DNA of 25,365 nt, taken from positions 1-25,365 of the IMG/VR virus record IMGVR_UViG_3300027808_000151; one strand, written 5' to 3'. This DNA is from a virus. Taxonomy: Duplodnaviria > Caudoviricetes. Made by a program: the position numbers and the translations under genes. This document shows positions 1-13,747 of this stretch, piece after piece (the stretch's first letter is position 1; each line of letters starts with the position of its first letter). The notes under the pieces are model-generated. The model was not told the origin of the DNA and did no database searches. It worked only from the letters and a program-made list of their open reading frames with translations.

Positions 1-2
1 GC

Positions 3-605
3 TGGTCTCTGCAAGCACTGGAAACCTGTCCCGGCTCTGTGTCGGCTTCAGGTGCTCTGGTTGACGCTTGCTCCGGATGCTACGCCACCACCGGATGCTA
101 CTCCTTCAAAGGCACTAAAGCAGTCCGCGCCGATAATAAGGCTGCATGGCAAGAGGCTGGCTGGGTTGACACCATGGTGGCTGCTCTCAAAAAGCAGAGC
201 TACTTCCGTTGGTTCGATTCTGGTGATATGTACTCCCTCTCCTTGGCTGTGAAAATGTACGAGGTTATGGCTGCCACTCCCCACGTCAAGCACTGGTTAC
301 CAACACGGATGTATAAATTCGCTAAGTTTAATGCCATACTGGCCAAGATGGAGGCACTGCCTAATGTCATGGTCCGTAGGTCCTCGGATGCTATTGACGG
401 TACATATACTGCTGGTGTGCATGGCTCCACAATTTTACCTGATGCTACCTCGGTGCCATCCGGTGTTACCTTATGCACCGCTTATGAGCATGGCGGTAAA
501 TGTAATGGCTGCCGCGCTTGCTATGACAAATCGGTGGAAGTGGTTGGTTATCCTGCACACGGCCGCAAAATGGCTAAGGTTATTCGGTTGGCAGTGGCTG
601 CTTAA
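3..605 (+). CDS. Gp88-like phage protein (Cys-rich, probable Fe-S/radical-SAM-like), 5'-truncated by the window
   Basis: Frame is open from base 3 (WSLQALETCPGSVSASG...). Motifs CxxCYA, YFRWFDSGD, HWLPTR and C-terminal C-x8-CxxCxxC are typical of Gp88-family proteins as I recall them. Confidence 0.75.
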   Translation, partial: WSLQALETCPGSVSASGALVDACSGCYATTGCYSFKGTKAVRADNKAAWQEAGWVDTMVAALKKQSYFRWFDSGDMYSLSLAVKMYEVMAATPHVKHWLPTRMYKFAKFNAILAKMEALPNVMVRRSSDAIDGTYTAGVHGSTILPDATSVPSGVTLCTAYEHGGKCNGCRACYDKSVEVVGYPAHGRKMAKVIRLAVAA

Positions 606-647
606 GGTTTTCGCTTCCCCCTTGAGGCTTGGCTGGATGGGGGGTTT

Positions 648-681
648 GGGACAGAGCTCTGGTGGCTCTGTCCCTTTTTTT
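648..681 (+). terminator. Rho-independent terminator of the Gp88-like gene
   Basis: Perfect 10-bp stem GGGACAGAGC/GCTCTGTCCC, 7-nt loop, followed by T7. Confidence 0.9.
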
Positions 682-758
682 ATGGCTCACTGGGGAGCAG
701 TAGCGGTGAGGGATGGGGGTACCGTAGGTAAGCGATTAGCAAAAAAAGCTGTACCAGG

Positions 759-986
759 TCAAACTCTTTTTTCCAATTTTTTATTTTCTGGGGCTCCCAA
801 TGGATCCACGAAATTTTTTTCAGGAGCCCCTACAAGGTTTTTTTGTTTTTCCAATATTTCATTGATTATGGCAATAGCTTTGTTTGCTTGACCTCTCGGG
901 TCATCAGTCGTATTGTATGATATTGGATACAATGCCTCCAGTACCAGTTTCAAATTGAAACGTTGCAGTGATTCTTCTGGTGTCAT
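759..986 (-). CDS. hypothetical protein (75 aa, duplicated GAPE motif at C-terminus)
   Basis: ATGA overlap with the upstream gene; last gene of the minus-strand block. Confidence 0.65.
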   Translation of the reverse strand: MTPEESLQRFNLKLVLEALYPISYNTTDDPRGQANKAIAIINEILEKQKNLVGAPEKNFVDPLGAPENKKLEKRV

Positions 987-1228
987 CCTTCAACTCCAAA
1001 ATGATGTTTAATTTCTTCCACACAGTCCCTACGAAAAGCATCTTCAATCTGGTCACGGTAGTCTTTATATCCAGGTGATAGCCCTTCTACAATACCAATA
1101 CATTTGAGAATAATCAACTCGGCGAATTTTTCTTGCAAGGGATCAGGAACAACGATAGTGGCATATTTGTTTTCTGCCTTAAATTCTTCTAAAGCCTGTT
1201 CAAAAAGTTCTTTAATTCGTTCGTTCAT
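983..1228 (-). CDS. hypothetical phage protein (MNERIKEL...KFAELI...IKHHFGVE type)
   Basis: Recurrent small phage-protein pattern. Start moved to the ATG at 1228. Confidence 0.75.
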   Translation of the reverse strand: MNERIKELFEQALEEFKAENKYATIVVPDPLQEKFAELIILKCIGIVEGLSPGYKDYRDQIEDAFRRDCVEEIKHHFGVEG

Positions 1229-1433
1229 CAAAGTAACCACTTTCATCTATAATTGTTTTCTCTATTACTACCATATCGCCATTTACTACAGCCGGTAAAG
1301 ATACTTTGACAATTGAACCGATACTTGATGACGAATCTACGGTCACGGTAACGTAGTCTGCTTCCGGATACTTATCACAAAATTGTTTGATTGCAATAAG
1401 GTCTTCTCTGTGTAATGATAATTTATTGTTCAT
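1212..1433 (-). CDS. hypothetical protein
   Basis: 73 aa, translationally coupled (ATGA) to the upstream ORF. Confidence 0.7.
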   Translation of the reverse strand: MNNKLSLHREDLIAIKQFCDKYPEADYVTVTVDSSSSIGSIVKVSLPAVVNGDMVVIEKTIIDESGYFDERTN

Positions 1434-1627
1434 GCTTCAATGTCCAGTTTGTTTCCTTTGGCTCTGATAGCCTTTATGAATGCTCTCTGTGTATAGATGT
1501 AATCAGCAATAGATTCAATGAACCGATTGTGTCTAGTATCTTCTCTTTTGGCCAAAGACTGTGCTTCTTTAGCTCTCATGTCGGATGGAAGAATAACTGG
1601 TTTACCTTCCGATGATGTGATTCTCAT
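1430..1627 (-). CDS. hypothetical protein
   Basis: 65 aa, ATGA overlaps on both sides. Confidence 0.65.
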   Translation of the reverse strand: MRITSSEGKPVILPSDMRAKEAQSLAKREDTRHNRFIESIADYIYTQRAFIKAIRAKGNKLDIEA

Positions 1628-2625
1628 TTTAATCGTATCAAGTTATCTCTAAAAATTTCCCATGCTTTTTGCCAGGACCATTTGTTTGAATGTATTATAA
1701 CATCTTTGCGGTCCAATGTCAAGCAGCAAGAGATAACATAGTTTAAGTCCTCACCAAGATAACCAGTTTTACCAATTTCTACCACATCTAACGGTCCGGT
1801 TACTGGGTACGCAGCTACTGGTGTACCGCAGGCCATGGCCTCAATCATAACGATACCGAACGTTTCCCACTTTGAAGGGAACACGAAAACATCTGCGTTT
1901 GCGTAATAGTATGCAAGTTCTTTGCCAGTCTTGAAACCAACGAACTCAACATCTGGATACTTTAAGGCTAACTCGGACATATATGGTCCATCGCCGACCA
2001 TGATTTTTCTGGCACCTGGATACTTTATCTTGCAGAAGTCATCGAGGTTCTTTTCTTTTGAAACTCTGGAAACACAAACAAGGGTGGGGCCTCCGGAAGC
2101 GCTTGCAAGGCGCTGTGAGTCATTAAATATATCTCTATCTACTCCACGAGTCCAAGGTAATATGTTTTGTTTGAACCCGTGGTTGTGTAAATCTTTGACC
2201 ATCGTTTCTGTTGTGGTCAAGACTTTACCTGAGTGTTTATGAAACCAACGGACGTATGCCCATGTTAGAAACTCAGGTATACCAAGTAACTTCTTTAAGC
2301 CCTCAGGAAACTTAGTATGATAAGCGGTATTGTAACGATAATCGCATAGTGAAAGATATTTTCTAGCCCACAGACCAAGAGGACCTTCTGTGGCGATGTG
2401 GATATAATCCGGATTGATCTCCTTAATCTTCTTGCCCAAGTTCCTCGGATAGGTAAGTTTGACTTCGTTGTAGCCAGGACAATCAATATAGCGGAACCAC
2501 CGGGGATCAAGCACCACAACGTTATAACCATCCAGAATCGCACACGCCTCAATGTTCTTGTAAGTTGTGACAACGCCATTGATTTGATCCGGTAAGTTAT
2601 CTGTTATAATTAATATTGTTTTCAT
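1624..2625 (-). CDS. GT4 (GT-B fold) glycosyltransferase, Agt-like diacylglycerol glycosyltransferase
   Basis: ITD..P.QINGVV, HIATEGPLG, YHTKFPE, RWFH, WTRGVD, RVSKEKN, VGDGP, ADVFVFPS.WETFGIVMIEAMACG.PV (E-x7-E motif). Confidence 0.9.
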   Translation of the reverse strand: MKTILIITDNLPDQINGVVTTYKNIEACAILDGYNVVVLDPRWFRYIDCPGYNEVKLTYPRNLGKKIKEINPDYIHIATEGPLGLWARKYLSLCDYRYNTAYHTKFPEGLKKLLGIPEFLTWAYVRWFHKHSGKVLTTTETMVKDLHNHGFKQNILPWTRGVDRDIFNDSQRLASASGGPTLVCVSRVSKEKNLDDFCKIKYPGARKIMVGDGPYMSELALKYPDVEFVGFKTGKELAYYYANADVFVFPSKWETFGIVMIEAMACGTPVAAYPVTGPLDVVEIGKTGYLGEDLNYVISCCLTLDRKDVIIHSNKWSWQKAWEIFRDNLIRLK

Positions 2626-2753
2626 TGTACTGCTTGTGTACGTTTTTTCTTCAAAGATTTTCTTAATGTTTTAAGCCAAAGCCGGCGTTCTTTGTTTTTA
2701 TCACCCTTCAGGATGGCCTTGTACATCTTTGTAATTAATTTGTTTACTTTCAT
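2622..2753 (-). CDS. 43-aa very basic helical peptide (not in ORF track)
   Basis: MKVNKLITKMYKAILKGDKNKERRLWLKTLRKSLKKKRTQAVQ*. AGGAG Shine-Dalgarno upstream; its TGA overlaps the GT start (ATGA). Confidence 0.65.
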   Translation of the reverse strand: MKVNKLITKMYKAILKGDKNKERRLWLKTLRKSLKKKRTQAVQ

Positions 2754-3507
2754 TATCACTCTCCTGTGTCCAAGTTATAATTTCCCAACGGCCGTCATGA
2801 TGTTCCACTAGTGCAGTACATGATTCAACCCAGTCGCCGTCATTCATATAGGTAACACCGTCTATTTCTTTTATCTCTGCATGGTGTATGTGTCCGCAAA
2901 TGACACCATCAAAACCACGTTTCTTACAATACTTAGTTAAGTTTTCTTCAAACTTAAAAATAAAATCTACTGCTTTTTTGACACGGTGCTTAAGAAACTG
3001 GCTAAGGCTAAAGTACCCAAAACCCATACGATGACGAATCCAATTAATCCTAGTATTGAGTCCAAGAATGAAATCATATGCTTTATCTCCTAAAAATGTT
3101 AACCACGGTGCAAGTCTTGTGATGCCGTCAAACATATCTCCGTGTACTACTAGATAGTGTTTACCATCTGCACCGATATGTTCTGTTTGATTGTGTATTT
3201 CGATTGAGCCAAAACTGAAACCATATGGTATCATTGGTCTTAAAAATTCATCGTGATTGCCTGCAATGAATATTACTTTGGTGCCACGTTTGGCATGACC
3301 TAATACTCTGCGTACCACATTAGTGTGGGATTGTTTCCAACGCCATTTGTTTTGTTGAATTTTCCATGCATCAATTATATCGCCAACTAGATATAATGTA
3401 TCACATGAATTGTTCTTCAAAAAATTATTGAGAGCCTCAGCTTTACAGTCTTTGGTTCCCAAATGGACATCGGAAATGAATATTGATCGGTATGTTTTTT
3501 TCTGCAT
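2701..3507 (-). CDS. plcP: calcineurin-like metallophosphoesterase, PlcP/LpxH2-type (putative phospholipase C)
   Basis: SDVHLG, GDIID, GNHD, HGD, CGHIH and NDGDWVESCTALVE motifs; sits next to an Agt-like GT as in bacterial plcP loci. Confidence 0.75.
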   Translation of the reverse strand: MQKKTYRSIFISDVHLGTKDCKAEALNNFLKNNSCDTLYLVGDIIDAWKIQQNKWRWKQSHTNVVRRVLGHAKRGTKVIFIAGNHDEFLRPMIPYGFSFGSIEIHNQTEHIGADGKHYLVVHGDMFDGITRLAPWLTFLGDKAYDFILGLNTRINWIRHRMGFGYFSLSQFLKHRVKKAVDFIFKFEENLTKYCKKRGFDGVICGHIHHAEIKEIDGVTYMNDGDWVESCTALVEHHDGRWEIITWTQESDNESKQINYKDVQGHPEG

Positions 3508-3531
3508 CCTATTATGTAGAAAATTAATTAA

Positions 3532-3549
3532 TTGTCACACCATTGTCAT
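3532..3549 (+). promoter_or_regulatory. Pho-box-like tandem repeat (7-4-7)
   Basis: TTGTCAC-ACCA-TTGTCAT versus consensus CTGTCAT-N4-CTGTCAY, 11-bp period, in the 45-bp gap upstream of plcP. Inverted relative to plcP. Confidence 0.55.
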
Positions 3550-3552
3550 CTA

Positions 3553-3840
3553 TTAAATCGTACCATCACTTTGGCCAGCACCTAAAACACAACCTGTTAC
3601 GGCATCATATTGTATTAATGTCCAAGTGCCTTTTTCTTTGTTCATAACAATTGAAATATAAGAACCTGATGCGGATTCTTTGCCAACCCATACCGGTACT
3701 TCACCAAGTTGTTTGAAAAGATATTCCATGAGGCTTTGGGCAGAAGAACAGTTCATCGGTTTGTTTAACTGAAATATCTTTTCTTGTGCAAATGTTGTCG
3801 TACTTAACAATAATGTTAAAGTAATGATTATTTTACGCAT
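3553..3840 (-). CDS. secreted/periplasmic hypothetical protein
   Basis: Signal-peptide-like N-terminus MRKIIITLTLLLSTTTFA; two Cys. Confidence 0.75.
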   Translation of the reverse strand: MRKIIITLTLLLSTTTFAQEKIFQLNKPMNCSSAQSLMEYLFKQLGEVPVWVGKESASGSYISIVMNKEKGTWTLIQYDAVTGCVLGAGQSDGTI

Positions 3841-3947
3841 TGTGGTTCCTCTAAGGTATTCATTGTTCGTTCATGGAGTTTATCCCATACATCTGGTTCT
3901 CCCCAGAAAAGGAAGAATAGTAAAAGAATAATAATAATCTCACGCAT
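3828..3947 (-). CDS. 39-aa single-TM membrane peptide (not in ORF track)
   Basis: MREIIIILLLFFLFWGEPDVWDKLHERTMNTLEEPQCVK*; fills the gap between its neighbours. Confidence 0.6.
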   Translation of the reverse strand: MREIIIILLLFFLFWGEPDVWDKLHERTMNTLEEPQCVK

Positions 3948-3949
3948 AA

Positions 3950-4759
3950 TTAAGTCAAGTATCGTATGATTATGATACCAGAACCACCTGCAAGATTTGC
4001 TGTAGCATTATTACCATGTCCGCCGGCACCGCCGCCAGTATTCGGTGCACCGGCAGTAGGCGTTCCGCCCGGACTACTGCCGCCACCACCCCAACCTCCG
4101 CCACCCAATGCTTGTGTAGTTTCACCGCCGCCTTGACCGTTTGTTCTGCCGGCACCGCCACCACCACCATAATAAGTTGAAGTGCCTGATATATCAAATG
4201 CACGGCCATTCCATCCATCTGCACCGGCACCACCACCTCTTGCAGCACTTAAGAAGTTGCCGCCTGTGCCACCAGCAGCACCAAAACCACCTGTTGAACT
4301 ACTTGGTTGTAGTGCTGCGCCGCCGACAGCATTTGAAGCACCACCGCCACCGCCAGAGCCGCCTGCAATACCTGGTTGACCATCGAATCCACCTTTGCCA
4401 CCACCAAGTGCAACAAAAGTTGATATTGAACTATTTTGTCCGTTAGCACCAGCAACACCTTGTCCTATTGATACAGAATAACTTCCAAATGTTAATAATT
4501 GTTCTGTTAAATATGCAACACCGCCGGCACCGCCACCACCTGTTGCATTACCACCGGTCACAGAACCTCCACCAGCACCAACTAACAATATATCAAATGT
4601 TTTACCTATATCTCTAAAAATCTGGAAAGTTCCATTTGATGTGAACGTATGTATGGTATAAAGTCCACTGGTGCTTACTATTCCACCATCAGCAAATTGT
4701 GATGATCCTATCCGTATACCACGGCCTAGTTGAATTCCTGATCCTATTGAGATGGGCAT
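3950..4759 (-). CDS. glycine-rich virion-associated protein (fibre/decoration-like)
   Basis: YTIHTFTS.GTF, LLVGAGGG, GGGG runs and GGSGIIIIRY end; late promoter upstream. Confidence 0.75.
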   Translation of the reverse strand: MPISIGSGIQLGRGIRIGSSQFADGGIVSTSGLYTIHTFTSNGTFQIFRDIGKTFDILLVGAGGGSVTGGNATGGGGAGGVAYLTEQLLTFGSYSVSIGQGVAGANGQNSSISTFVALGGGKGGFDGQPGIAGGSGGGGGASNAVGGAALQPSSSTGGFGAAGGTGGNFLSAARGGGAGADGWNGRAFDISGTSTYYGGGGGAGRTNGQGGGETTQALGGGGWGGGGSSPGGTPTAGAPNTGGGAGGHGNNATANLAGGSGIIIIRYLT

Positions 4760-4760
4760 A

Positions 4761-4904
4761 TTAAGTATTTAAATTAAGGTAATAGTATTTATACAGTCTC
4801 ACAAAATATGAGAATTGCATAGGTTCATGTTCGGGATCAGGTAACTTATCACCGAAATGAGATTTCATTTTCTCGTATAATTCTAAGGCTTGTTCATCAC
4901 TCAT
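4761..4904 (-). CDS. 47-aa hypothetical protein (not in ORF track)
   Basis: MSDEQALELYEKMKSHFGDKLPDPEHEPMQFSYFVRLYKYYYLNLNT*; abuts both neighbours. Confidence 0.65.
   Translation of the reverse strand: MSDEQALELYEKMKSHFGDKLPDPEHEPMQFSYFVRLYKYYYLNLNT
4786..4793 (-). promoter_or_regulatory. T4-type late promoter (gp55 sigma)
   Basis: Exact TATAAATA about 27 nt upstream of the Gly-rich gene start. Confidence 0.7.
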
Positions 4905-5183
4905 TTAATCTTCTTTGTAGATATTAGACCAAATTTTCAGTTTCTCTTTTTTGGCCTGTCTTGCTGCATTAATGTTACCATCAGAAATCATGCACTTCTC
5001 TACCATAATATCAATCATAGCAAGAAGGTCACCAACTTCTTCTTCCAAACTTTGCATGTTACTTTTATTTGTAACAGGATGTACAGAATCGAAACCGAAA
5101 CGGAAAATCTTAGAGATTGCCTGTGTCACCTCAGCACATTCTTCCTGTGTGATACAAAGAATCTCTTTGGTCTTTTTATCCAT
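4905..5183 (-). CDS. MazG-like NTP pyrophosphohydrolase
   Basis: QEECAEV...LEEEVGDLL acidic motifs; start set at MDKKTK. Confidence 0.75.
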   Translation of the reverse strand: MDKKTKEILCITQEECAEVTQAISKIFRFGFDSVHPVTNKSNMQSLEEEVGDLLAMIDIMVEKCMISDGNINAARQAKKEKLKIWSNIYKED

Positions 5184-5406
5184 TAATAACCTCATTCAAC
5201 AAAATTTGATTACCATCGGCACCTTGACACCAAGATTCTGCAAAATCTTCTGCTTCATTTATTCTCTGTAGTGTTGTTCTTTGCACCACACGGTTCTCAA
5301 CATATAGTGTTACTTCCCATATATCAAATTGCCGGTCAAGGCCTCTACTAAGTCTATTGATTGTGGCTTTTCTGCCATCACCATAATATTCTGAATGAAT
5401 TTCCAT
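5176..5406 (-). CDS. hypothetical protein
   Basis: 76 aa, AAGGAG RBS. Confidence 0.75.
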   Translation of the reverse strand: MEIHSEYYGDGRKATINRLSRGLDRQFDIWEVTLYVENRVVQRTTLQRINEAEDFAESWCQGADGNQILLNEVING

Positions 5407-5416
5407 AATTAACTCC

Positions 5417-7504
5417 TTATGTAATTAGTCCGATAAAACGATTCAGTACAACTCGGCTACTGTGTTTACCACTATTGTACTTTGTAAATGCAGAGGCAAT
5501 ACCTCTGAAGGTTGAGTTTTCTTTAACTTCAAAAGTAGAATCCTCATCTGTATCTAGGCCATTTGACCTCAAGATATAATATTCATCATATCCAGTATTT
5601 TCTAAAACAGCAAACTTTGATTTTTTAAAGTTTTCTTTCATTTCTTCGTGATTGGTTTGTTTTGGAAACCATTGATATACTTTACGATTAAAGTCTCTGC
5701 CATTAATAACATAGAAACCAATAACATTTGAACCAGTTCTGGATTTTAATAATCGAATAAAAGCACTTGTATATTCATCATGGTTCCTAGTATTATTAAT
5801 TTTTTCTTCATGTTTGGTAACAGGGTCACGTATAATCAATCTATCGCAATCCATTTTTACATCTTGTAGTCCATAATATGAATCTTTTTGATAATATCGA
5901 TTTGAATTGTTACTTTCACCATCTGTTAGAAAAATTGTATTGACAATCTGTAACTTGTTTTTCTTTTGAAACTCAGGAACAATAGTCATGGCATGAACGA
6001 TTGCTTGGTTCAGTGGTGTGCCTTGCATGTTCATCCAGTAAGGAAAATAACCACGAGTGCTACCTAGTCCAGCCAAGCAAACCAATGAAGAACATGCATA
6101 TGTAAATTCAGCACTAGACATTCTTGATGATAATAGATTCATCAAACCATATGGTCTGAAATAGATATCATTTTCTTTTTTAACTTGAGATGTTTCCTGT
6201 TCTCTATCTGTTTCTTCGATAAATGCATATACCTCATAGGGTATGTTTAATTTTTTACAAAACAATACCAAATTAATCAACTGTTTCATTGTATTGCCAA
6301 TATGGTCAATCATAGAACCAGACCAATCAAGAAACATAACAAGACCGTGTGACTTGCCACCAGGAACAACTGAGATTTTCTTAAAGATATCTTCATTGAA
6401 ACCGTAAGAGTAAATCTTACTCATATTCAGTTCACCGGTTTTGGCTGTTGTTGCACGTTTTAACTGGTCAGCATTTTTACGCATTTCAAATTCTTTAACA
6501 AGATAAGAAACGACCTTATTACTTTCATTTCGAATTTTAAGAAATGTTTCTGTTGAAGAACTGAAATTATCTTGTTTGTATCTTTTCCAAATTACTTTGT
6601 GGTCAACAACTTGTTTCGGATCAAAATGTGGAATATTTGCATATAAAATATTACCCACACTATTATCAAATAACTGTTTTTCATTTTCTTTATAAGATGC
6701 ATCAGTAAAAGAACGAATCTGGTCTTCCAGACTTACTTTTTTATCTTCTTTTTTCTTGTTGAACTTATCAGAATCACGTTCGTTGGCTTGAATATCTCCC
6801 TCGTCAATTTCATCACCATCTTCAAAAGTTTGTTCTTTTGAATTGCCTTGGTTATCAAAGTCAACTTCTTCATATTCAGGTTGATCTTCATCTTCACCAT
6901 CGTCACCGTTTTCGGCTTTGGCTTTGGTGCGCTTTTGTTCTTCTTCTTCTAATTTACGTTTCATGTATTCGATGATTCTTTTCGATACATCAATAACGTC
7001 ATCATAGGTTTCAGTTGTTTCAACTTCATTAAGTAAATTACGTTCTTCATCATTAAATTGAATACGTAATGCTGCACCACCTTTGCAGTGTAGATTAATA
7101 CGGTCAAGAAAATTCATCTTGTTGATATCCGTTCCTTTGATGCCAAAAAAATCTCTAGTCATAAGCTCACCATAAGCTTTAACAAAGGAGTTTTTAAGAC
7201 CTGGATATTTGTATTTAATTTTGCGTTCAATACGGGAATCTTCGACTACATTAGTCACATCCCGAATAACATTTTCTTCTTTTGCTTTCAACATACCTTC
7301 AATGGGTGTATATAAAGCATGGCCAACTTCGTGACCAGTAAACAAATCATAAAGAGCGCTGGAAATATTTTTATCTAAAACTGGAAGTGTCAAAATCCGG
7401 TTCTTAACATCAAAAGATGCTGTTTGTACCGGTCGTTGTTCGACAACAAGGTTTTCGGTCGCCATCAATTTGGCCAACAAAGATTTAGATTCGAGTAATT
7501 CCAT
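5417..7504 (-). CDS. CobT-like protein: HExxH metallopeptidase-like domain, acidic linker and vWA domain
   Basis: HEVGH...NVVEDSRIE; D/E-rich linker; MIDAS DWSGS, GTPL, FLTDGE. Confidence 0.8.
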   Translation of the reverse strand: MELLESKSLLAKLMATENLVVEQRPVQTASFDVKNRILTLPVLDKNISSALYDLFTGHEVGHALYTPIEGMLKAKEENVIRDVTNVVEDSRIERKIKYKYPGLKNSFVKAYGELMTRDFFGIKGTDINKMNFLDRINLHCKGGAALRIQFNDEERNLLNEVETTETYDDVIDVSKRIIEYMKRKLEEEEQKRTKAKAENGDDGEDEDQPEYEEVDFDNQGNSKEQTFEDGDEIDEGDIQANERDSDKFNKKKEDKKVSLEDQIRSFTDASYKENEKQLFDNSVGNILYANIPHFDPKQVVDHKVIWKRYKQDNFSSSTETFLKIRNESNKVVSYLVKEFEMRKNADQLKRATTAKTGELNMSKIYSYGFNEDIFKKISVVPGGKSHGLVMFLDWSGSMIDHIGNTMKQLINLVLFCKKLNIPYEVYAFIEETDREQETSQVKKENDIYFRPYGLMNLLSSRMSSAEFTYACSSLVCLAGLGSTRGYFPYWMNMQGTPLNQAIVHAMTIVPEFQKKNKLQIVNTIFLTDGESNNSNRYYQKDSYYGLQDVKMDCDRLIIRDPVTKHEEKINNTRNHDEYTSAFIRLLKSRTGSNVIGFYVINGRDFNRKVYQWFPKQTNHEEMKENFKKSKFAVLENTGYDEYYILRSNGLDTDEDSTFEVKENSTFRGIASAFTKYNSGKHSSRVVLNRFIGLIT

Positions 7505-7680
7505 TATTTTTTCTCGGTTACAATGATAATATTGCCTGTTGGTGTTTCTTCAACACTTAAATTTAACACGGTGCCTTCTTTCCAACCTGTTTCAGCAATA
7601 AATTCTTCAGGAAATTCTAAGATTGCATCACCAGTACCATCATTAGCTTCTTGCACTTGAATTATATAAGACTTACTCAT
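7504..7680 (-). CDS. AbrB/MazE/SpoVT-like DNA-binding protein (58 aa, not in ORF track)
   Basis: MSKSYIIQVQEANDGTGDAILEFPEEFIAETGWKEGTVLNLSVEE...; the P.E....GW..G..L signature; TAATG coupling to the next gene. Confidence 0.7.
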   Translation of the reverse strand: MSKSYIIQVQEANDGTGDAILEFPEEFIAETGWKEGTVLNLSVEETPTGNIIIVTEKK

Positions 7681-7819
7681 AGTATTCTTTCATCCGTTTG
7701 TACCAATCTTGGTCATTTTCGAATTGTGACATAACTGCCCATTGCCGAGTGACTTCATCTAAAGGTTTCCAATCAATCGGTTCTTGCGGTTCTTGTTTTG
7801 GCTCAGTATTTTGTGACAT
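7673..7819 (-). CDS. 48-aa hypothetical protein (not in ORF track)
   Basis: MSQNTEPKQEPQEPIDWKPLDEVTRQWAVMSQFENDQDWYKRMKEYYE*; AGGAG RBS. Confidence 0.6.
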   Translation of the reverse strand: MSQNTEPKQEPQEPIDWKPLDEVTRQWAVMSQFENDQDWYKRMKEYYE

Positions 7820-7973
7820 TTTTTGCTCCTAGCTCAGTGATTGACGACAAAATCGCTTTTTTAGCGTTTTTACGATCATATTTTACGACATTTCTGTGTT
7901 CTTGTACAGGTTTGATTGCAGTACGACATACCGGACGTTGCAATTTTACAACAAAACTCATTTTTTTACTCAT
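7803..7973 (-). CDS. 56-aa basic hypothetical protein (not in ORF track)
   Basis: MSKKMSFVVKLQRPVCRTAIKPVQEHRNVVKYDRK...; starts directly after the upstream stop, GAGG upstream. Confidence 0.55.
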   Translation of the reverse strand: MSKKMSFVVKLQRPVCRTAIKPVQEHRNVVKYDRKNAKKAILSSITELGAKNVTKY

Positions 7974-7974
7974 T

Positions 7975-8304
7975 TTAGCGCCTCATTTTTGAAATTTCTA
8001 CAGCTTCTTCACTGTTAAACACAGGTACAGCGTTTGATTTGTGCATTGTTGCAATTCCAATCACTTTTGTACCTGTATAAACCTTTGGTGTAGCTTTGGT
8101 TGCAACACCATTGCCTGTATTTAATGACGGATAACGCACGGTTTCACGGCCGGCAGGCGTTGTCAGCTTATATGTTAGTTGATTGCTTGTGGATTTGATT
8201 GGTTTTGATGTTTGGTGTGATTTCAACCACTCATCATACTGTTCACGCACGGATCTTGGTCCTAGTTTTTTCTTGGACCTTGCAGTTCGAACATATATCA
8301 TCAT
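7975..8304 (-). CDS. conserved T4-like phage hypothetical protein
   Basis: YTG...GIATMHKSNAVPVF motif; AGGAG RBS; first gene after a sigma70 promoter. Confidence 0.8.
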   Translation of the reverse strand: MMIYVRTARSKKKLGPRSVREQYDEWLKSHQTSKPIKSTSNQLTYKLTTPAGRETVRYPSLNTGNGVATKATPKVYTGTKVIGIATMHKSNAVPVFNSEEAVEISKMRR

Positions 8305-8328
8305 AAAAATCTCCTAAACAATGGTTGT

Positions 8329-8357
8329 ATTATACACCATATGATAGAGCTTGTCAA
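8329..8357 (-). promoter_or_regulatory. consensus sigma70 (early) promoter
   Basis: TTGACA-17 nt-TATAAT on the minus strand. Confidence 0.85.
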
Positions 8358-8361
8358 CAGC

Positions 8362-8383
8362 TGTGTTGTTAGTTTACAACACA
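8362..8383. repeat. inverted repeat just upstream of the -35 box
   Basis: TGTGTTGT-tagttt-ACAACACA. Confidence 0.65.
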
Positions 8384-8390
8384 AAATTAA

Positions 8391-8576
8391 TTAATATGTT
8401 TTACTTTTTTTTCTTGCGGATTTTTGATAATCTTCAGAACCTTGGAAATAATCATAATCTTCATAATTTGATTTTTTTCTTGAGGTTTTTTGCTGATTTT
8501 TTTTCTTTTTACTTGAATGAAATTCAAGTTCTTCTTCGTAGTCCGAATTACGAAATTTACCGAAAACTTTAGACAC
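8391..8576 (-). CDS. small basic hypothetical protein
   Basis: GTG start with GGAG upstream; K-rich. Confidence 0.65.
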   Translation of the reverse strand: MSKVFGKFRNSDYEEELEFHSSKKKKNQQKTSRKKSNYEDYDYFQGSEDYQKSARKKSKTY

Positions 8577-8581
8577 TTTAA

Positions 8582-8971
8582 TTAAACTCCTTGATTAATA
8601 ATTTCAAATGTTGTGAAAGTAATGCCACGAATACGTGATTCTGGCATATTCTGCATGTTCATCTCTGAAACATAGGTTATATTGGATACGGGATAACACA
8701 ATTTTATAAGTTTTAACAAATTACAGCATGTTCCATCGAAATCATTAAATGTAAACACTTCATCGACAAAAGGAAAACTTTCCACGACTTCTCTTCTTTG
8801 TGAAAAGTTGTTTCTGGCACCGGATCGACATAATTCCATATAAGAATCGGAATGTATGCCGACAACAAGCCAATCACACTTTGTTTTACAAGTTTTTAAT
8901 AATTTAAACTCATCATAAGATACAGGATCAAATTCACCAGATACGATAATGATGTTTTCTTTTTTTGTCAT
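8582..8971 (-). CDS. degenerate cytidylyltransferase-like (TagD/RfaE-like) protein
   Basis: IVSGEFDP, LVVGIHSD and VDEV are retained, but HxGH is replaced by SYDE. Confidence 0.7.
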   Translation of the reverse strand: MTKKENIIIVSGEFDPVSYDEFKLLKTCKTKCDWLVVGIHSDSYMELCRSGARNNFSQRREVVESFPFVDEVFTFNDFDGTCCNLLKLIKLCYPVSNITYVSEMNMQNMPESRIRGITFTTFEIINQGV

Positions 8972-9393
8972 GGCAACATGTCTGGAAATGCCTCTTTTAC
9001 AAATTTATAGTCTAACCCTTTTACTCCCAAATCTTTTTGGAAGATACCCAATAAAACTTCTGCTTCTCGTGGTTCAATCGATTCTAACATTTGAATTAAT
9101 AATTCATTTCTACGTTGTTCACTTAATTTTTCTGCGGTTGCATCACCATCCATGAACATATACATTTTACGTATTTGTCCATTAAGGCTATCATGCGTGA
9201 TGCCAGGTAACATATCCGTAGGAACTTTATAGTTCTCCGGCAACTCTTTAATTTTCCATTTAATTTTTGGATGATAAGCTAGCTTTAATACATCAACCAA
9301 TGTTTTTGAAAGATTTTTGGAAATTACATCCATTCTTTCTTTTTTGTTTTTTGCTAGTTCAAATTCATCAAAAACTTCATATAACGATTTCAT
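8968..9393 (-). CDS. conserved T4-like hypothetical protein downstream of rnh
   Basis: RRNELLIQMLESI.PREAEVLL...VKEAFP pattern; coupled to rnh. Confidence 0.8.
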   Translation of the reverse strand: MKSLYEVFDEFELAKNKKERMDVISKNLSKTLVDVLKLAYHPKIKWKIKELPENYKVPTDMLPGITHDSLNGQIRKMYMFMDGDATAEKLSEQRRNELLIQMLESIEPREAEVLLGIFQKDLGVKGLDYKFVKEAFPDMLP

Positions 9394-10256
9394 TAAAATT
9401 CCCCAATAACATCTATTAAACTTTTCAGTTTATTTGCAATCAAATAATCCAGTATTTTACCCTTAGGCGCTGGTTTGGTTTCTTCATAAGTATTTATAAT
9501 TTTATTTTGTATATCAATAGGTATGTTTCTCAAGTCAATCAATGTCTGGTTGCGTGAAAAACCGATACGTGCATTTTCATCATCATAATCACCATAGTTT
9601 TGTGACATAAATTTAGTGAGTTTGGCTTCTGTCATAACCTTTTGGCGGATTCCACGAACAAACGTGTCACTCGGTGAAAGTATGTTTGGAATACCATCAC
9701 CTTTGTCGCCAGTGATGATTTTATTTTTCAATTCATCCATTGGACTTTTGGAAATTAAGAATTTCTTTTGTGTTGGATTGTATTGTTTAATACTAAACTC
9801 ATTTCTACCATTATACATCTGTAATTGTAGAAAATCACCATCACTGGAAATTATTAGTATATTTTCATGCATAATGTGTCGTGGTACAAGTGTGCCAATA
9901 ATGTCATCAGCTTCTGCACCATCGACATCAATTACCTTGTATGGGAAATTATCTCTGAGTTCTTGTTTGAATTTTGAAAGCATATCAAAAATTAAATGCC
10001 AATCAAGTTCAGATTTCTCTCTAGTTTTTTTACGACCGGCCTTGTAGAAGGGAAAGAACTCCTTGCGCCAATAATTGCGGTTGTCAGCACACAACACAAC
10101 TTCGCCATATCCTTCACGGAAGTTCTTTAGGTGCGTCCTGATGATGTTCAGGATCATATGCCTTATAAGACCCTCTTCCAGTTTAACACCTTTTTGACTG
10201 GCAATTTGTGCCATTAGGCCTGACAACAATACTTGGTTAAGATCAACGAGAATCAT
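9393..10256 (-). CDS. rnh: T4-type RNase H (5'-3' exonuclease)
   Basis: MILVDLNQ, YWRK..FP.YKA.R, EADDIIG, ISSDGDFLQL, GDKGDGIPN. Confidence 0.95.
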   Translation of the reverse strand: MILVDLNQVLLSGLMAQIASQKGVKLEEGLIRHMILNIIRTHLKNFREGYGEVVLCADNRNYWRKEFFPFYKAGRKKTREKSELDWHLIFDMLSKFKQELRDNFPYKVIDVDGAEADDIIGTLVPRHIMHENILIISSDGDFLQLQMYNGRNEFSIKQYNPTQKKFLISKSPMDELKNKIITGDKGDGIPNILSPSDTFVRGIRQKVMTEAKLTKFMSQNYGDYDDENARIGFSRNQTLIDLRNIPIDIQNKIINTYEETKPAPKGKILDYLIANKLKSLIDVIGEF

Positions 10257-10282
10257 AATATACTTTTAGTTTAGATTTTACT

Positions 10283-10311
10283 ATTTTACATCATTGATTC
10301 GAATTTGTCAA
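10283..10311 (-). promoter_or_regulatory. sigma70-like promoter for rnh
   Basis: TTGACA-17 nt-TAAAAT at the end of the upstream gene. Confidence 0.7.
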
Positions 10312-10630
10312 CAGCATCATCTAGGAAATTATTTGAGGTTGTGGTTTTCTTTGCGACTAAACCGTACCACCCTTGTGGAATCAATTGCGATACGTATTCC
10401 CTAGGATCGGCAAAGATTGCATCAAATGTGTCCAGATGTTCTACTGTACCGTTTTCTTCGTTGCATTTAAACAACAAGATATGCCACCAAGACCCAATAA
10501 TATTACCTTCTATTGGTTGACCTGGAATTTTGTATTTATTTGTTACGATGTTGATACTATCTTCATCTTCCATTGGTAAAAAGAATAATGCATCAAATTC
10601 TTCACTAATGTCTTTCAAATAATCTAGCAT
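10286..10630 (-). CDS. hypothetical protein
   Basis: 114 aa, acidic, overlaps the GIY-YIG stop. Confidence 0.75.
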   Translation of the reverse strand: MLDYLKDISEEFDALFFLPMEDEDSINIVTNKYKIPGQPIEGNIIGSWWHILLFKCNEENGTVEHLDTFDAIFADPREYVSQLIPQGWYGLVAKKTTTSNNFLDDAVDKFESMM

Positions 10631-11037
10631 TGCAATCCTTTAATGTGTGATTTTCTTACTCTTACCATAATCCAAGAATTGTAATAGTCATCTGTTTCCA
10701 GAGCACCATTTACAAACTGTTCTTTTGCTTCAAGATAACCACACTCACCTTTGCTTTTGCATAAATGTATAATTTCTCGGCTAAACGAATCTAGTCCGTG
10801 TATTATAACATCTTTTTTTAATTCCTCGTTACTACCATAATAAGTTTGCCAGTCCGAGGAAACTTTGAAACGTTTCTTCTTACCTTTTACTTGTCTGGTT
10901 TTTGAGGAGTAAAAGAATTTCTTACCAATGTATTTTTTATTTGTTACATTGTTGGTTATAAGATACACGAATCCATAATACTCACCAATTAAATCTTCTG
11001 TAAAATCTTTATCTTTATGTATCCAGTTTAGTCCCAT
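10624..11037 (-). CDS. stand-alone GIY-YIG family nuclease (Seg-like catalytic domain)
   Basis: YGFVYLITN...KKYIGKK, YYGS, later E and N of the GIY-YIG core. Confidence 0.8.
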   Translation of the reverse strand: MGLNWIHKDKDFTEDLIGEYYGFVYLITNNVTNKKYIGKKFFYSSKTRQVKGKKKRFKVSSDWQTYYGSNEELKKDVIIHGLDSFSREIIHLCKSKGECGYLEAKEQFVNGALETDDYYNSWIMVRVRKSHIKGLQC

Positions 11038-11219
11038 TTTTCATTATCATCATTGAGTTCATCATCCTCTATATATTCTTCTTCGGATAATGAATCAATG
11101 GTTTCACCACAAAATGGGCAAAACTCGGGTAATTCTTCTGATACAAGTTCTTGCATATAAATTACATCATAGCTGGATTCACAACTACTACACTCTGCTG
11201 TTATTGTTTTTGTTGTCAT
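11028..11219 (-). CDS. small zinc-ribbon protein
   Basis: CSSC...CPFCG with acidic tail. Start moved to the ATG at 11219 (AAGGA RBS). Confidence 0.8.
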   Translation of the reverse strand: MTTKTITAECSSCESSYDVIYMQELVSEELPEFCPFCGETIDSLSEEEYIEDDELNDDNEKWD

Positions 11220-11229
11220 ATGTTTTCCT

Positions 11230-12216
11230 TTAGTTTGCCCACACATCACCCCAATTTCCAGACAATGCACCTTTTGCATAATCGGTTGCACGGTTCTCGA
11301 AAAAGTTTGTATGTGTTGGTGCGTTAATCATTTCCTCTACCCAAGGTAATGGATTTTTCTTCACTTTAAAAATGCCTTTAAGACCAAGAGATATGAGGCG
11401 TCTATCGGCAATATAACGAATATATTTTTTAACATCTTCACTAGAAAGTCCTTCCATAGCACCCATTGAAAAAGCAAGGTTGATAAATTTATCTTCTAGT
11501 TCAACCATTTTTTCTGCAATAGTATAGATACGACCTTTGAGTTCATCATTCCATATCTCTTTGTTTTCTTCTATATAGGTTCGGAATAATTTAATCATAG
11601 ACTCAGCATGTTGTGTTTCATCAACAATAGACCAAGTAACGATTTGTCCCATACCTTTCATTTTACCTGTACGTGGAAAGTTAAGCAACATAATGAAAGA
11701 AGAGAATAACTGCATACCTTCGGTGAAAGCACTGAACACGGCGATATGAGTTGCAGTTGAAGCTGCATTACCATTTTTAGAAGAAATGTCCAACACATAA
11801 TCGTGTTTGTCTTTCATTTCTTGATAGTCTGAAAATTGGTTGTATGTGGCTTCAGGTAAACCTAAAGTTTCAATTAAGTGACTGTAAGCAGCAACGTGTA
11901 ATGCTTCTCTTGCAGCAAAACCTAACAACATCATACGCACTTCTGGTTGTGGAAAATATGGCAAATAATTCTTAACATATCCACCAGCAACATCAATGTC
12001 GCCTTGTGTAAAGAAACGGAAGATGTGTGTTAGAAATTGTTTTTCTTCGGTTGTTAATTTCTTTTTCCAATCTTTAACATCTTCTGACATTGGAACTTCT
12101 GTATGCAACCAATGTGATTGTTCGTGTTTCAACCATGCATCATATGCCCAAGGATAATTGAAAGGTTTGAAACTGTTTCTTTCATCCGTAAGTTTAGATT
12201 CGATTTTCTTAATCAT
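11230..12216 (-). CDS. nrdB: class Ia ribonucleotide reductase beta subunit
   Basis: FFTQGDIDV, REALH..AY, TEG, DETQH, NFFE.RATDY; ATGA overlap with thioredoxin. Confidence 0.95.
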   Translation of the reverse strand: MIKKIESKLTDERNSFKPFNYPWAYDAWLKHEQSHWLHTEVPMSEDVKDWKKKLTTEEKQFLTHIFRFFTQGDIDVAGGYVKNYLPYFPQPEVRMMLLGFAAREALHVAAYSHLIETLGLPEATYNQFSDYQEMKDKHDYVLDISSKNGNAASTATHIAVFSAFTEGMQLFSSFIMLLNFPRTGKMKGMGQIVTWSIVDETQHAESMIKLFRTYIEENKEIWNDELKGRIYTIAEKMVELEDKFINLAFSMGAMEGLSSEDVKKYIRYIADRRLISLGLKGIFKVKKNPLPWVEEMINAPTHTNFFENRATDYAKGALSGNWGDVWAN

Positions 12217-13108: not shown

Positions 13109-13747
13109 TTATCTTTCCATTAATTCGTTTACAAACTCTAGTAGTTGTATGTGGTGTTTACCATTATGATACTTACCTTTCATCCAACTATAACTTTCAT
13201 ACCAATGTGATTGGCTTTCGGGATGACAACCAATCAGACCAATTCTACCTTGTATAATAGCCATCGGATCATCATTCATATACTTTGCAATGATATCATA
13301 CTGTCCTGGTCCAAATGCACACCCATCATAAAAGAACATGTTATCATCAATGCCATTCCATACGATAGGCATGTTCTTTGCATGGGGTCGCCGTGTATCT
13401 GTGTTTGGTCTTTTTATATATTGTTCAACTTCTACGTTGTCTAGTATATTGAGGTAGTGTTTACCTGCCCAATATGCACCCATACAAATACCAAGATAAT
13501 GCCCACCATTCTTCACAAATTCTTTTACACGATATGCATTGTAATTAAATAATCTATCATATGAATCAGAATCACCAAAGCCACCCGGTACAGCAATCAT
13601 TTGCACATCATCAAAGAAATCATCTTCTAGTTCATTCTTTGAAAATATTTTAAAATTATAGTGTGAACCTAAAGCCTTGATGATTCCATTACCACTTTGC
13701 ACTGAACATTTTGGATCATATATAAACAATGCTATAGTAGGTTTCAT
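13109..13747 (-). CDS. BPL_N-like class I glutamine-amidotransferase-fold protein
   Basis: AVPGG, GGHYLGICMGAY nucleophile elbow, HPE. Confidence 0.8.
   Translation of the reverse strand: MKPTIALFIYDPKCSVQSGNGIIKALGSHYNFKIFSKNELEDDFFDDVQMIAVPGGFGDSDSYDRLFNYNAYRVKEFVKNGGHYLGICMGAYWAGKHYLNILDNVEVEQYIKRPNTDTRRPHAKNMPIVWNGIDDNMFFYDGCAFGPGQYDIIAKYMNDDPMAIIQGRIGLIGCHPESQSHWYESYSWMKGKYHNGKHHIQLLEFVNELMER

Follow-up and report, generated by a model that had tools for sequence, protein, structure and literature searches.

A candidate PlcP-Agt pathway for membrane lipid remodelling encoded by a freshwater T4-like phage

The window, as we refer to the whole 25,365-nt stretch of DNA analysed, is a virus fragment estimated to be 15% complete, and its source is a freshwater, T4-like phage. 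A T4-like context had been claimed in an earlier note on this DNA and was borne out by a gp61-type primase, nrdA/B, thyX, RNase H, and baseplate genes. The primase is at most 46% identical to those of cultured phages and NrdA at most 62%. As also claimed, two intact ORFs are co-oriented on the minus strand, one for a phosphoesterase (plcP) and one for a glycosyltransferase (agt). A small basic protein and a phosphate-starvation-type site accompany the pair. The earlier note missed both (ORF at 2622-2753, site at 3533-3549); its end coordinate, 3549, encloses the site without naming it. The features are as follows.

1624..2625, minus strand: Agt-family GT4 glycosyltransferase, 333 aa (Pfam, similarity to Agt1, tree)
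1694..1722, minus strand: perfect sigma-70 promoter, TTGACA-17-TATAAT with TG, inside the agt 3' end (12/12 consensus)
2622..2753, minus strand: small lysine-rich ORF, 43 aa (net charge +14, two predicted amphipathic helices)
2701..3507, minus strand: PlcP-family metallophosphoesterase, 268 aa (family match, metal ligands, tree)
3513..3518, minus strand: TACATA, 5 nt before the plcP ATG, overlapping a sigma-70-like CATAAT
3533..3549, plus strand: perfect Pho-box direct repeat, TGTCAC-N5-TGTCAT, inverted relative to plcP and 25-42 nt upstream of its start

The conserved small ORF shares the final 53 nt of plcP, read in a different frame, and fills the gap to agt, whose ATG overlaps the small-ORF stop (ATGA). 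A candidate non-phosphorus lipid synthase lies directly downstream of plcP. The promoter at 1694..1722, the best among 17 sigma-70 sites in 600-4900, likely drives small downstream ORFs and marks the downstream border of the cassette.

By sequence, ORF 2701-3507 is confirmed as a PlcP-family phosphoesterase. It has a Pfam Metallophos match (2e-12) and is 55% identical to PlcP of Pseudomonas aeruginosa (276 bits) and 49% to that of Sinorhizobium meliloti (247 bits), versus 24% over 125 aa to Escherichia coli LpxH (36 bits). The PlcP references, from strains HPA0698 and Ak57, respectively, were picked by gene context; we take the reference PlcP and Agt orthologues to be those numbered PA3219-PA3218 and SMc00171. 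Dimetal ligands with His where LpxH has Arg are an important criterion for PlcP. All of the ligand motifs DxH, GDxxD, GNHD, HGD, and GHxH are present, reading DVH, GDIID, GNHD, HGD, and GHIH in the translation, as is GDWVESCTA, all as previously claimed. His occupies the LpxH Arg site, and the proposed distinction from LpxH was confirmed in that the E. coli enzyme has GNRD in place of GNHD. Residues D13, H15, D43, D46, N84, H85, D86, H122, D124, H206, and H208 are invariant (123/123 viral and 108/108 bacterial sequences). In a quick IQ-TREE phylogeny of 85 rows, with a single LpxH outgroup on a long branch, the protein groups with PlcP, apart from LpxH. It belongs to a phage-only clade, which does not arise from within the Burkholderiales or Hyphomonadaceae that were sampled. 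Median dN/dS is 0.07 (80 unsaturated of 122 pairs), indicating purifying selection. No signal peptide is visible in the sequence, and the product is predicted to be a cytoplasmic phospholipase C. Characterised PlcPs share 46-51% full-length identity among themselves, according to passages of PMC8528852 and PMC9239053, and the phage identities of 55% and 49% are in keeping with this range. A single-sequence fold prediction gave a pLDDT of 43, too low for use.

ORF 1624-2625 is likewise confirmed, at the level of sequence, as an Agt-family GT4, with a Pfam Glycos_transf_1 match (3e-25). Its best characterised match is P. aeruginosa Agt1 (37.7% over 332 aa, 229 bits), compared with 128 bits to Agt2 and 36 bits to WaaG. 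In a tree that comprised no SAR11 or Agrobacterium Agt sequences, it falls inside a 52-row group (support 99) that excludes the LPS transferases WaaG and WaaB. The viral Agts also form a phage-only clade, on a long stem and outside the Burkholderiales and Hyphomonadaceae sampled, and evolve under purifying selection (median dN/dS 0.19, 90 of 91 pairs). Two of the motifs reported earlier, HIATEGPLG and RWFH, are present; the third, given as PQ.NGVV, should read PDQINGVV. The product is predicted to be a UDP-sugar:diacylglycerol glycosyltransferase. Acceptor and donor residues listed for SAR11 Agt in part of PMC8231724 (His104, Arg163, Trp320, Gly16/82/85, Arg190, Lys195, Thr257, Phe258, Gly259, Glu264) have equivalents in the phage protein, set by motif and offset rather than by alignment to the SAR11 sequence. 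Specifically, His103, Arg160, Arg187, Lys192, Glu262, Trp318, and three Gly are conserved, and His103, Arg160, and Trp318, predicted to bind diacylglycerol, occur in 92, 91, and 92, respectively, of the 92 viral sequences.

The donor site differs. Position 254 is Glu in 90/92 viral Agts, with Asp retained by the other two members, versus Asp in 41/45 bacterial homologs; Ser186 also departs from the bacterial majority. The phage protein reads FPSKWETFG and SRVSKEKN and does not match the FPSxTDTFG (Asp256) and GRVAxEKN of SAR11 and Agrobacterium. Asp256Glu in SAR11 Agt removed >90% of activity (reported in part of PMC8231724), yet P. aeruginosa Agt2 has Glu at the catalytic Asp site and is active (passages of PMC8528852). 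Because an active enzyme also has Glu, Glu254 makes membership of the narrow SAR11/Agrobacterium subgroup less probable, rather than Agt-like working. UDP-glucose dehydrogenase, found in 2/3 complete relatives, was discarded as a clue to the sugar donor since the gene is too common.

The 43-aa ORF is coupled to plcP. Of 152 viral plcP loci, counted with the seeds and without de-duplication, 69 contain it according to an HMM built from 30 homologs (48 upstream and 21 downstream of plcP), and no locus lacking plcP gave a match. In the cellular-collection and reference loci it occurs in only 3/98, all phage-like contigs in MAGs. Against 12 homologs, differences by codon position number 107/76/157. 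There is no NCBIfam match, and a homolog search with the peptide returned four unnamed proteins. We infer that its product is a PlcP accessory.

The earlier note had proposed to check linkage of the two enzyme genes in related phages, and the pair proved tightly linked there (75/80 Agt-anchored viral loci, and 67/67 of those with at least 2.5 kb upstream). Anchoring on plcP, a glycosyltransferase lies within 2.6 kb downstream in 79/80 viral loci: 38 have Agt and 41 a GT2, never both, and in the sole exception the sequence ends 39 nt after plcP. The GT2 partner matched no family above cut-off. Desaturase genes are common neighbours (34 loci). A close plcP pattern occurs in an estimated ~1500 stretches of IMG/VR. 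We found no phage PlcP-Agt described in the literature, and records label the gene 'LpxH'.

The Pho box is the sole match in the window (chance mean 0.04; 4 of 100 shuffles had one) and fits the consensus CTGTCATNNNNCTGTCAT given in the part of PMC8528852 consulted. All 4 lineage relatives inspected retain an inverted repeat at this place, although it carries 1-2 mismatches and its flanks differ. Its orientation is opposite to plcP, as in 5 of the 73 relatives with a box; the other 68 have it on the same strand. TACATA would be a one-base variant of the T4-type late-promoter core TAAATA and would give a leaderless mRNA. Among 124 plcP starts, TAAATA stands 3-9 nt before the ATG in 70 and TACATA in 5, all of this lineage; TACATA is not enriched at that spot before other genes (1.2 vs 1.0 per position). 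The region can also be read as a sigma-70 site, GTGACA-16-CATAAT (10/12). Late promoters of the T4 type pair a TAAATA core 4-8 nt ahead of the start with gp55 in the genome, and Pfam and family scans found no gp55 in the window fragment.

The T4 late-promoter core of most relatives is preceded, at 11 or 22 nt, by a Pho-type repeat. Allowing at most one mismatch, with the fourth position widened after viewing plcP upstream regions, we found the repeat within 100 nt upstream of 73/121 plcP, 13/21 pstS, 6/6 phoX, and 64/2551 other genes; it was absent there from 48/121 plcP genes. An unanchored search for the repeat, 11 nt, and TAAATA (128 loci read) returned 46 sites before plcP and 44 before pstS, and the other loci include one Na/Pi cotransporter, one further phosphate-binding-type protein, and two porin-like genes. 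At a spacing of 11 nt ~540 stretches matched, against 55 at 16 nt. Membrane proteins with an ANDS motif behind five of the boxes have no Pfam or NCBIfam match (four of the longer proteins and one fragment in one check, two in another) and were not counted as phosphate genes. The inverted-box design was rejected as a general rule: plcP stands in 8/37 matches, all of the window's lineage. Predicted Pho boxes of one cyanophage proved unreliable on testing, according to part of PMC10976474. All 3 complete relatives have a gp55-like sigma factor, and a PhoB-type DNA-binding domain was found in 0/3. PhoB probably works via region 4 of sigma factors, a region missing from gp55, so that joining a PhoB site to a promoter of the gp55 type poses a mechanistic puzzle.

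The best 80 genome matches, a set biased by seed patterns, are phage-like contigs in MAGs and then mostly Hyphomonadaceae; they do not single out a gene donor. In metatranscriptomes, 15 runs contain part of 1624-3560, and four were examined. Exact contigs from one run (X1) lie at 1915-2258, 2501-2841, and 3180-3855, but they are no proof of cassette expression because they are contigs only and the rest of 600-12000 is covered alike.

Given the PlcP and Agt relatives, the small basic protein, and the Pho-type site, the phage likely remodels the host membrane, freeing phosphorus at low phosphate. We consider it fairly probable that the window encodes a phage PlcP-Agt pathway in which phospholipid head groups are stripped and sugar lipids refill the membrane, with the host phosphate-starvation regulator as the switch. 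Host PhoB, active at low phosphate, would bind the repeat, and its position 11 or 22 nt ahead of the late core in most relatives would imply mid-late expression of a leaderless mRNA. PlcP would cut phosphatidylglycerol and phosphatidylethanolamine to diacylglycerol and a phosphorylated head group, from which host enzymes could free phosphate. Via the GT4, glucose or glucuronate would be placed on diacylglycerol so that the membrane remains a bilayer. Phage DNA synthesis would draw on the phosphorus released, which by a rough estimate would suffice for 4-22 genomes of 170 kb in each small cell. The basic amphipathic peptide may aid PlcP at the anionic membrane, which is the weakest step. Of the three outcomes that the earlier note named as refuting its reading, none appeared as far as sequence can show: the phosphoesterase groups with PlcP, the glycosyltransferase with Agt, and the genes are linked. 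The phosphorus-mining idea in the earlier note is supported; it gains from Pho-type sites common to phage pstS and phoX and loses its argument from nearby nrdAB and thyX. Those genes (nrdB, nrdA, thyX at 11.2-16.2 kb) are 8-13 kb off in an ordinary T4 core block, so their position was rejected as support and is no evidence for a phosphorus link. Several observations were counted against the proposal. Lipids contain less phosphorus than the host chromosome and rRNA, and many candidate hosts already own the pathway (plcP in 91/101 genomes of the Polynucleobacter-labelled genus). Also counted were pstS in only 1/3 complete relatives, Glu254, the inverted box, TACATA, the sigma-70-like overlap, the plcP genes lacking a nearby box, the few plcP matches of the inverted design, the widened motif position, and the unreliable cyanophage boxes.

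The benefit of the same chemistry could instead be a different charge of the envelope or a different display of receptors (superinfection exclusion, lysis timing, or protection from cationic peptides or grazers), with phosphorus gain incidental. Remodelling alters membrane proteins, possibly including phage receptors (part of PMC9804370), and polymyxin sensitivity (passages of PMC8528852); the late-type promoter geometry is also consistent with an envelope or lysis role, desaturase genes are neighbours in 34 loci, and 2/3 complete relatives lack pstS. We nonetheless judge this unlikely in view of a promoter design common almost only to phosphate-uptake genes and a glycosyltransferase that is exchangeable (GT4 or GT2) or, in the phage Mosig, absent beside plcP. 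Because of that exchangeability and absence, the conserved step is head-group removal, not a specific product. It is quite unlikely that PlcP is a phospholipase C while the phage GT4 has shifted in sugar donor, in acceptor (to LPS or a virion protein), or to a low level of activity. Both donor-binding motifs have changed across the clade (Ser186, Ser189, Lys190, Trp253, Glu254), and this, the long stem of the phage Agts, and the higher dN/dS of agt than plcP (0.19 vs 0.07) would fit such a shift. Opposing it are the acceptor residues His103, Arg160, and Trp318 noted above, known from the part of PMC8231724 consulted, the near-obligate placement of agt behind plcP, and Asp in two viral members.

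Very unlikely, in our estimate, is that the window lineage is no longer phosphate-activated, its inverted box being mainly the sigma-70 -35 of an early promoter or a PhoB repression site. The 10/12 sigma-70 match, an orientation opposite to 68/73 boxes, and the lack of TACATA enrichment ahead of other genes speak for it. However, CATAAT ends 2-3 nt before the ATG, which leaves too little room for sigma-70 transcription to begin ahead of the codon. Furthermore, in lineage relatives both half-sites persist whereas the -35 at that place is poor (GTTACT), and the 17 sigma-70-like sites found compare with 12.3 by chance. Finally, database labels would make the phosphoesterase an LpxH feeding lipid A synthesis and the glycosyltransferase a modifier of LPS, a reading we hold to be extremely improbable. 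LpxH (E. coli b0524; PDB 5b49, 6ph9, 8qk2) shares the calcineurin-like fold family and metal ligands with phage PlcP, matches to LpxH structures are weak (E 1e-5), GenBank/RefSeq labels read 'UDP-2,3-diacylglucosamine hydrolase/diphosphatase', and PMC9611531 lists lpxH as a viral auxiliary gene. Against this, identity to LpxH is 21-24%, Arg stands at the site of phage His85, LpxH models score 41-50 bits versus cut-offs of 134-190, the LpxH branch lies ~10 substitutions per site from the PlcP group, and PlcP orthologues of P. aeruginosa and S. meliloti bear the same database label.

The PlcP-Agt pathway that we favour for the window has been demonstrated in bacteria (passages of PMC8528852), and lipid-renovation operons are described in P. 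aeruginosa (PA3219-PA3218), SAR11 HTCC7211, Methylosinus OB3b, and S. meliloti (SMc00171) in parts of PMC8528852, PMC4796936, PMC8231724, and PMC9239053. The phage resembles these in gene order (plcP then agt), in all metal ligands and the residues of the acceptor site, and in an upstream Pho-type site; identity to the P. aeruginosa pair is 55% for PlcP and 38% for Agt. Unlike them, it carries the pair on a lytic T4-like genome, in phage-only clades, with the extra 43-aa ORF, a Glu254/Ser186 donor site, and a predicted late-type leaderless promoter whose box is inverted in the window lineage; GT2 replaces Agt in about half of its relatives. Cyanomyoviruses are likewise T4-like phages with host phosphate-starvation sites over phosphorus-related genes (pstS of P-SSM2; DNA-replication genes of S-PM2d), according to parts of PMC10976474 and PMC3037559. 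Those genes import phosphate or raise replication, whereas the window genes would tap membrane-lipid phosphorus, and the passages of the two sources consulted describe no fixed 11/22-nt fusion of box and late core. Pelagibacter (SAR11) phage Mosig EXVC030M infects HTCC1062, a host without plcP (part of PMC4796936). Its Mosig_00120 (MT647606.1), annotated as UDP-2,3-diacylglucosamine hydrolase, is a PlcP-family protein 51% identical to that of the window and outside the window's phage clade in the tree. The gene is divergent from pstS; TAAATA precedes its ATG by 5 nt, and 22 nt upstream lies a degenerate repeat, which is the geometry described above. The genome has no Agt match and no small ORF. 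This cultured phage-host pair makes the phosphoesterase testable.

Viruses are known to meet phosphorus limitation by import (pstS, phoA/phoX) and by breaking down the host chromosome. If the proposal is true, a phage PlcP-glycosyltransferase cassette would tap a third phosphorus pool, the host membrane. Part of PMC9239053 proposes that bacterial phosphorus stress can be read from the plcP counts and glycolipid signals of lake metagenomes; given the ~1500 IMG/VR stretches with a plcP pattern, such markers could be partly viral. Viral 'lpxH' auxiliary-gene calls are probably mislabelled. More broadly, and tentatively, a large, old group of aquatic T4-like phages may mine host membrane phospholipid for phosphorus, combining a PlcP of its own with a small membrane-binding partner and a glycosyltransferase that is exchangeable and has a donor site peculiar to phages, all expressed from hybrid promoters at which host PhoB controls phage gp55; some of these phages may give remodelling to hosts that lack the pathway, as Mosig may to HTCC1062.

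The window is a 25-kb piece of a phage genome, and the virus record is an estimated 15% complete. Genes for primase, NrdA/B, ThyX, RNase H, and baseplate proteins bear out the T4-like phage setting proposed in an earlier note, and the motifs it listed for two minus-strand ORFs are present in both translations. The nearness of nrdAB and thyX, which it took as a phosphorus clue, is uninformative here, as these genes lie 8-13 kb off in an ordinary core block. Window positions 1-760 (GC up to 49%, a plus-strand GP88-family gene, a strong terminator at 648-674) contrast with the remaining window. A BPL_N/glutamine-amidotransferase-like gene (13109-13747, minus strand) adjoins nrdA; 67/157 cassette loci gathered contain a homolog, often adjoining plcP.

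Features of the plcP-glycosyltransferase (GT) cassette
1624-2625, minus strand: P0002, Agt-family GT4, intact ORF, 333 aa
2622-2753, minus strand: 43-codon ORF overlapping the plcP end, its own stop overlapping the agt start
2701-3507, minus strand: P0001, PlcP-family phosphoesterase, intact ORF, 268 aa
3533-3549, strand opposite to plcP: perfect Pho box (direct repeat TGTCAC-N5-TGTCAT), the sole one in the window (chance mean 0.04)

P0001 is 55% identical (276 bits) to PlcP of P. aeruginosa strain HPA0698, encoded in a plcP-GT operon, and 49% identical (247 bits) to the product of an S. meliloti Ak57 gene that adjoins AHL synthase and LuxR genes and that, going by gene numbering, we take to be SMc00171. 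Identity to the E. coli lpxH product is 24% over 125 aa (36 bits). P0001 scores far under the cut-offs of LpxH family models, has His85 at the position of the LpxH Arg, and falls among PlcPs in an 85-row tree from a quick search (a subset of viral and bacterial sequences, plus references), within a phage-only clade of 28 rows (support 96). These lines all agree with the earlier assignment to PlcP rather than LpxH. In the same tree, sampled Burkholderiales PlcPs form their own clade apart from the phage clade, the Pelagibacter phage Mosig and two further viral rows fall outside it, and a very long branch leads to LpxH. At the metal site, eleven residues show no variation across 123/123 distinct viral and 108/108 bacterial sequences, and plcP is under purifying selection (median dN/dS 0.07; 80/122 pairs unsaturated). 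The label "LpxH2" presumably denotes the same family as PlcP. Cyanophage S-SRM01 carries a divergent PlcP-like gene (L083:5998-6702; 37%, GNHE and GDWCDT) close to psbA; plcP is largely missing from cyanobacteria, according to PMC4796936.

P0002 groups as the note had it, with Agt: its best identity is to Agt1, the GT behind P. aeruginosa plcP (38% over 332 aa), followed by 28% to the GT beside plcR, which from its numbering we take to be Agt2. Similarity to the LPS enzymes WaaG/WaaB is only local. P0002 belongs to a phage-only clade of 22 rows (support 99) inside a 54-row Agt-like group, and agt is under purifying selection (median dN/dS 0.19; 90/91 pairs unsaturated). Among residues defined experimentally as required in SAR11 Agt (PMC8231724), viral Agts keep His103 (92/92), Arg160 (91/92), and Trp318 (92/92), along with the Gly sites, Arg187, Lys192, Thr255-Phe-Gly, and Glu262. 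The catalytic Asp site is Glu in 90/92 viral sequences versus Asp in 41/45 bacterial Agts, and the first donor motif opens with Ser in 78/92 versus Gly in 45/45. An Asp-to-Glu change cost the SAR11 enzyme >90% of its activity (PMC8231724); Agt2, with Glu at this site, produces glucuronosyl-DAG (PMC8528852).

Linkage in related phages, which the note proposed to survey, is evident. plcP seed patterns occur in an estimated 1500 IMG/VR stretches (599 confirmed) and the GT in 281; the best 80 of each were taken. plcP was present in 75/80 GT-anchored loci; four of the others end ≤68 nt from the GT start, and L163 has 1.6 kb without plcP. A GT was present in 79/80 plcP-anchored loci (≤2.6 kb downstream: Agt in 38, GT2 in 41, both in 0), a set that retains redundancy, counts a contig identical to the window, and includes one locus that is cut off. 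The pair moves as a cassette, given that its flanking genes vary widely between loci. Among cultured and deposited phages, five records match P0001 and no close match to P0002 was found. Several relatives have a RimK-type ATP-grasp gene between plcP and agt (e.g., L031:6898-7785; carried by 16 loci), and 34 cassette loci encode fatty-acid desaturases (e.g., L032:10095-10799; box upstream in 0/26). Contigs within bacterial MAGs (L167-L172; plcP 70-86% identical, some with phage-type neighbours) probably represent phage sequence that was binned with bacterial genomes.

A profile built on 30 homologs, drawn from the viral loci themselves, detected the 43-codon ORF on either side of plcP in 69/152 viral plcP loci and in no locus without plcP. 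Only 3 of 98 cellular-collection and reference loci have it, all phage-like contigs. Variation is greatest at third codon positions, and the computed product is strongly basic and amphipathic; we infer that it acts at the membrane next to PlcP. A 95-aa protein with a hydrophobic N-terminus (3553-3840, minus strand), encoded immediately upstream of the Pho box, belongs to a family seen again in 31 cassette loci (cluster 6).

With at most one mismatch, and with its fourth position relaxed to A/C once plcP upstream regions had been viewed, the Pho repeat lies ≤100 nt upstream of 73/121 distinct plcP, and of 13/21 pstS and 6/6 phoX, whose upstream regions were not used in shaping the motif, versus 64/2551 remaining genes. 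Most copies of the repeat have TAAATA 11 or 22 nt further on and, at plcP, an ATG a few bases beyond it. TAAATA matches the late promoter described for T4 and S-PM2 (PMC2984593), and is enriched 4-8 nt ahead of other genes in cassette loci (22 vs 5.5 per position). An unanchored scan for the repeat, 11 nt, and TAAATA covered 128 of an estimated 540 loci (48 with 300-nt flanks only); plcP lay downstream in 46 (ATG 4-8 nt on in 41), pstS in 44, other known clusters in 10, unmatched ORFs in 18, and no ORF in 10. A control with 16-nt spacing gave 55 matches. Among the unmatched ORFs are a Na/Pi cotransporter, a phosphate-binding-type protein, and a pair of porin-like genes. Unannotated genes behind this promoter are candidate new phosphate-regulon members: they encode an ANDS-motif membrane protein (L316, L327, L334, L358, L414), which may transport phosphate, and proteins of coiled-coil or acidic type (the L309 family, which is cluster 60, and cluster 19). 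Near-complete genomes of 356-367 kb are available for three relatives; all of them encode a protein like gp55, the T4-type late sigma factor, only one has pstS, and no PhoB-type domain was found in the three. In the window, TAAATA is scarcer than chance (15 vs 31.6 expected); perfect TATAAATA lies upstream of a glycine-rich tail-type gene (PF21722; 3950-4791, minus strand), and a second TAAATA is found 6 nt ahead of the ATG of this gene.

The genus of a Polynucleobacter-labelled MAG has plcP (~50%) in 91/101 genomes, and in 13 loci taken from it agt follows plcP in 13/13 and a Pho-type site is present in 11/13; in its order, 57/251 genomes have an Agt match. Candidate hosts of this kind possess the needed lipids and regulator; in trees the phage cassette genes lie outside their clade. 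Mosig was isolated on HTCC1062, which lacks plcP according to PMC4796936. The plcP of Mosig is divergent from pstS; TAAATA stands 5 nt ahead of its start codon, ATG, with a degenerate repeat another 22 nt upstream. TAAATA precedes 3/4 late Mosig genes and 0/3 others checked. The P0002 search found no Agt in Mosig.

We favour, as a fairly probable reading, a cassette switched by host PhoB. Phosphate starvation of the infected cell would turn it on; PlcP would split phospholipids into diacylglycerol and phosphorylated head groups; a sugar added by the GT would cap the diacylglycerol, and the freed phosphorus would support phage DNA synthesis. On assumed values for cell size and lipid packing, the membrane holds phosphorus for 4-22 genomes of 170 kb, the chromosome for 12-21, and rRNA for 13-40; the membrane is thus a useful pool, and larger ones exist.

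An envelope purpose instead of phosphorus supply seems unlikely, and a shifted GT function is less probable again. Lower still we place loss or reversal of phosphate control in the window lineage. Here the layout is an inverted box, 14 nt, TACATA, 4-5 nt, and ATG, kept in 5 loci; a scan for it found plcP downstream in 8/37 matches, all of this lineage. The box is inverted relative to that of most relatives and the site doubles as a sigma-70-like site, which both favour this alternative; for PhoB control the site offers a candidate Pho box, inverted with respect to plcP. Predicted phage Pho boxes can fail binding tests (PMC10976474). That the phosphoesterase is LpxH is highly improbable given the model scores and His85, and the database label "UDP-2,3-diacylglucosamine diphosphatase" is found on bacterial PlcPs too.

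A literature search thin on subscription journals found no account of PlcP, alone or paired with Agt, in a phage. The nearest trace is "lpxH" tabulated as a viral auxiliary gene in Lake Baikal (PMC9611531), and the accessible portion of the Melnitz/Mosig paper makes no mention of the Mosig plcP (PMC9004378). Judged by its sequences, the cassette is genuine and conserved, a viral version of a pathway known from bacteria, and its proposed PhoB-switched use would supply membrane phosphorus to phage DNA.
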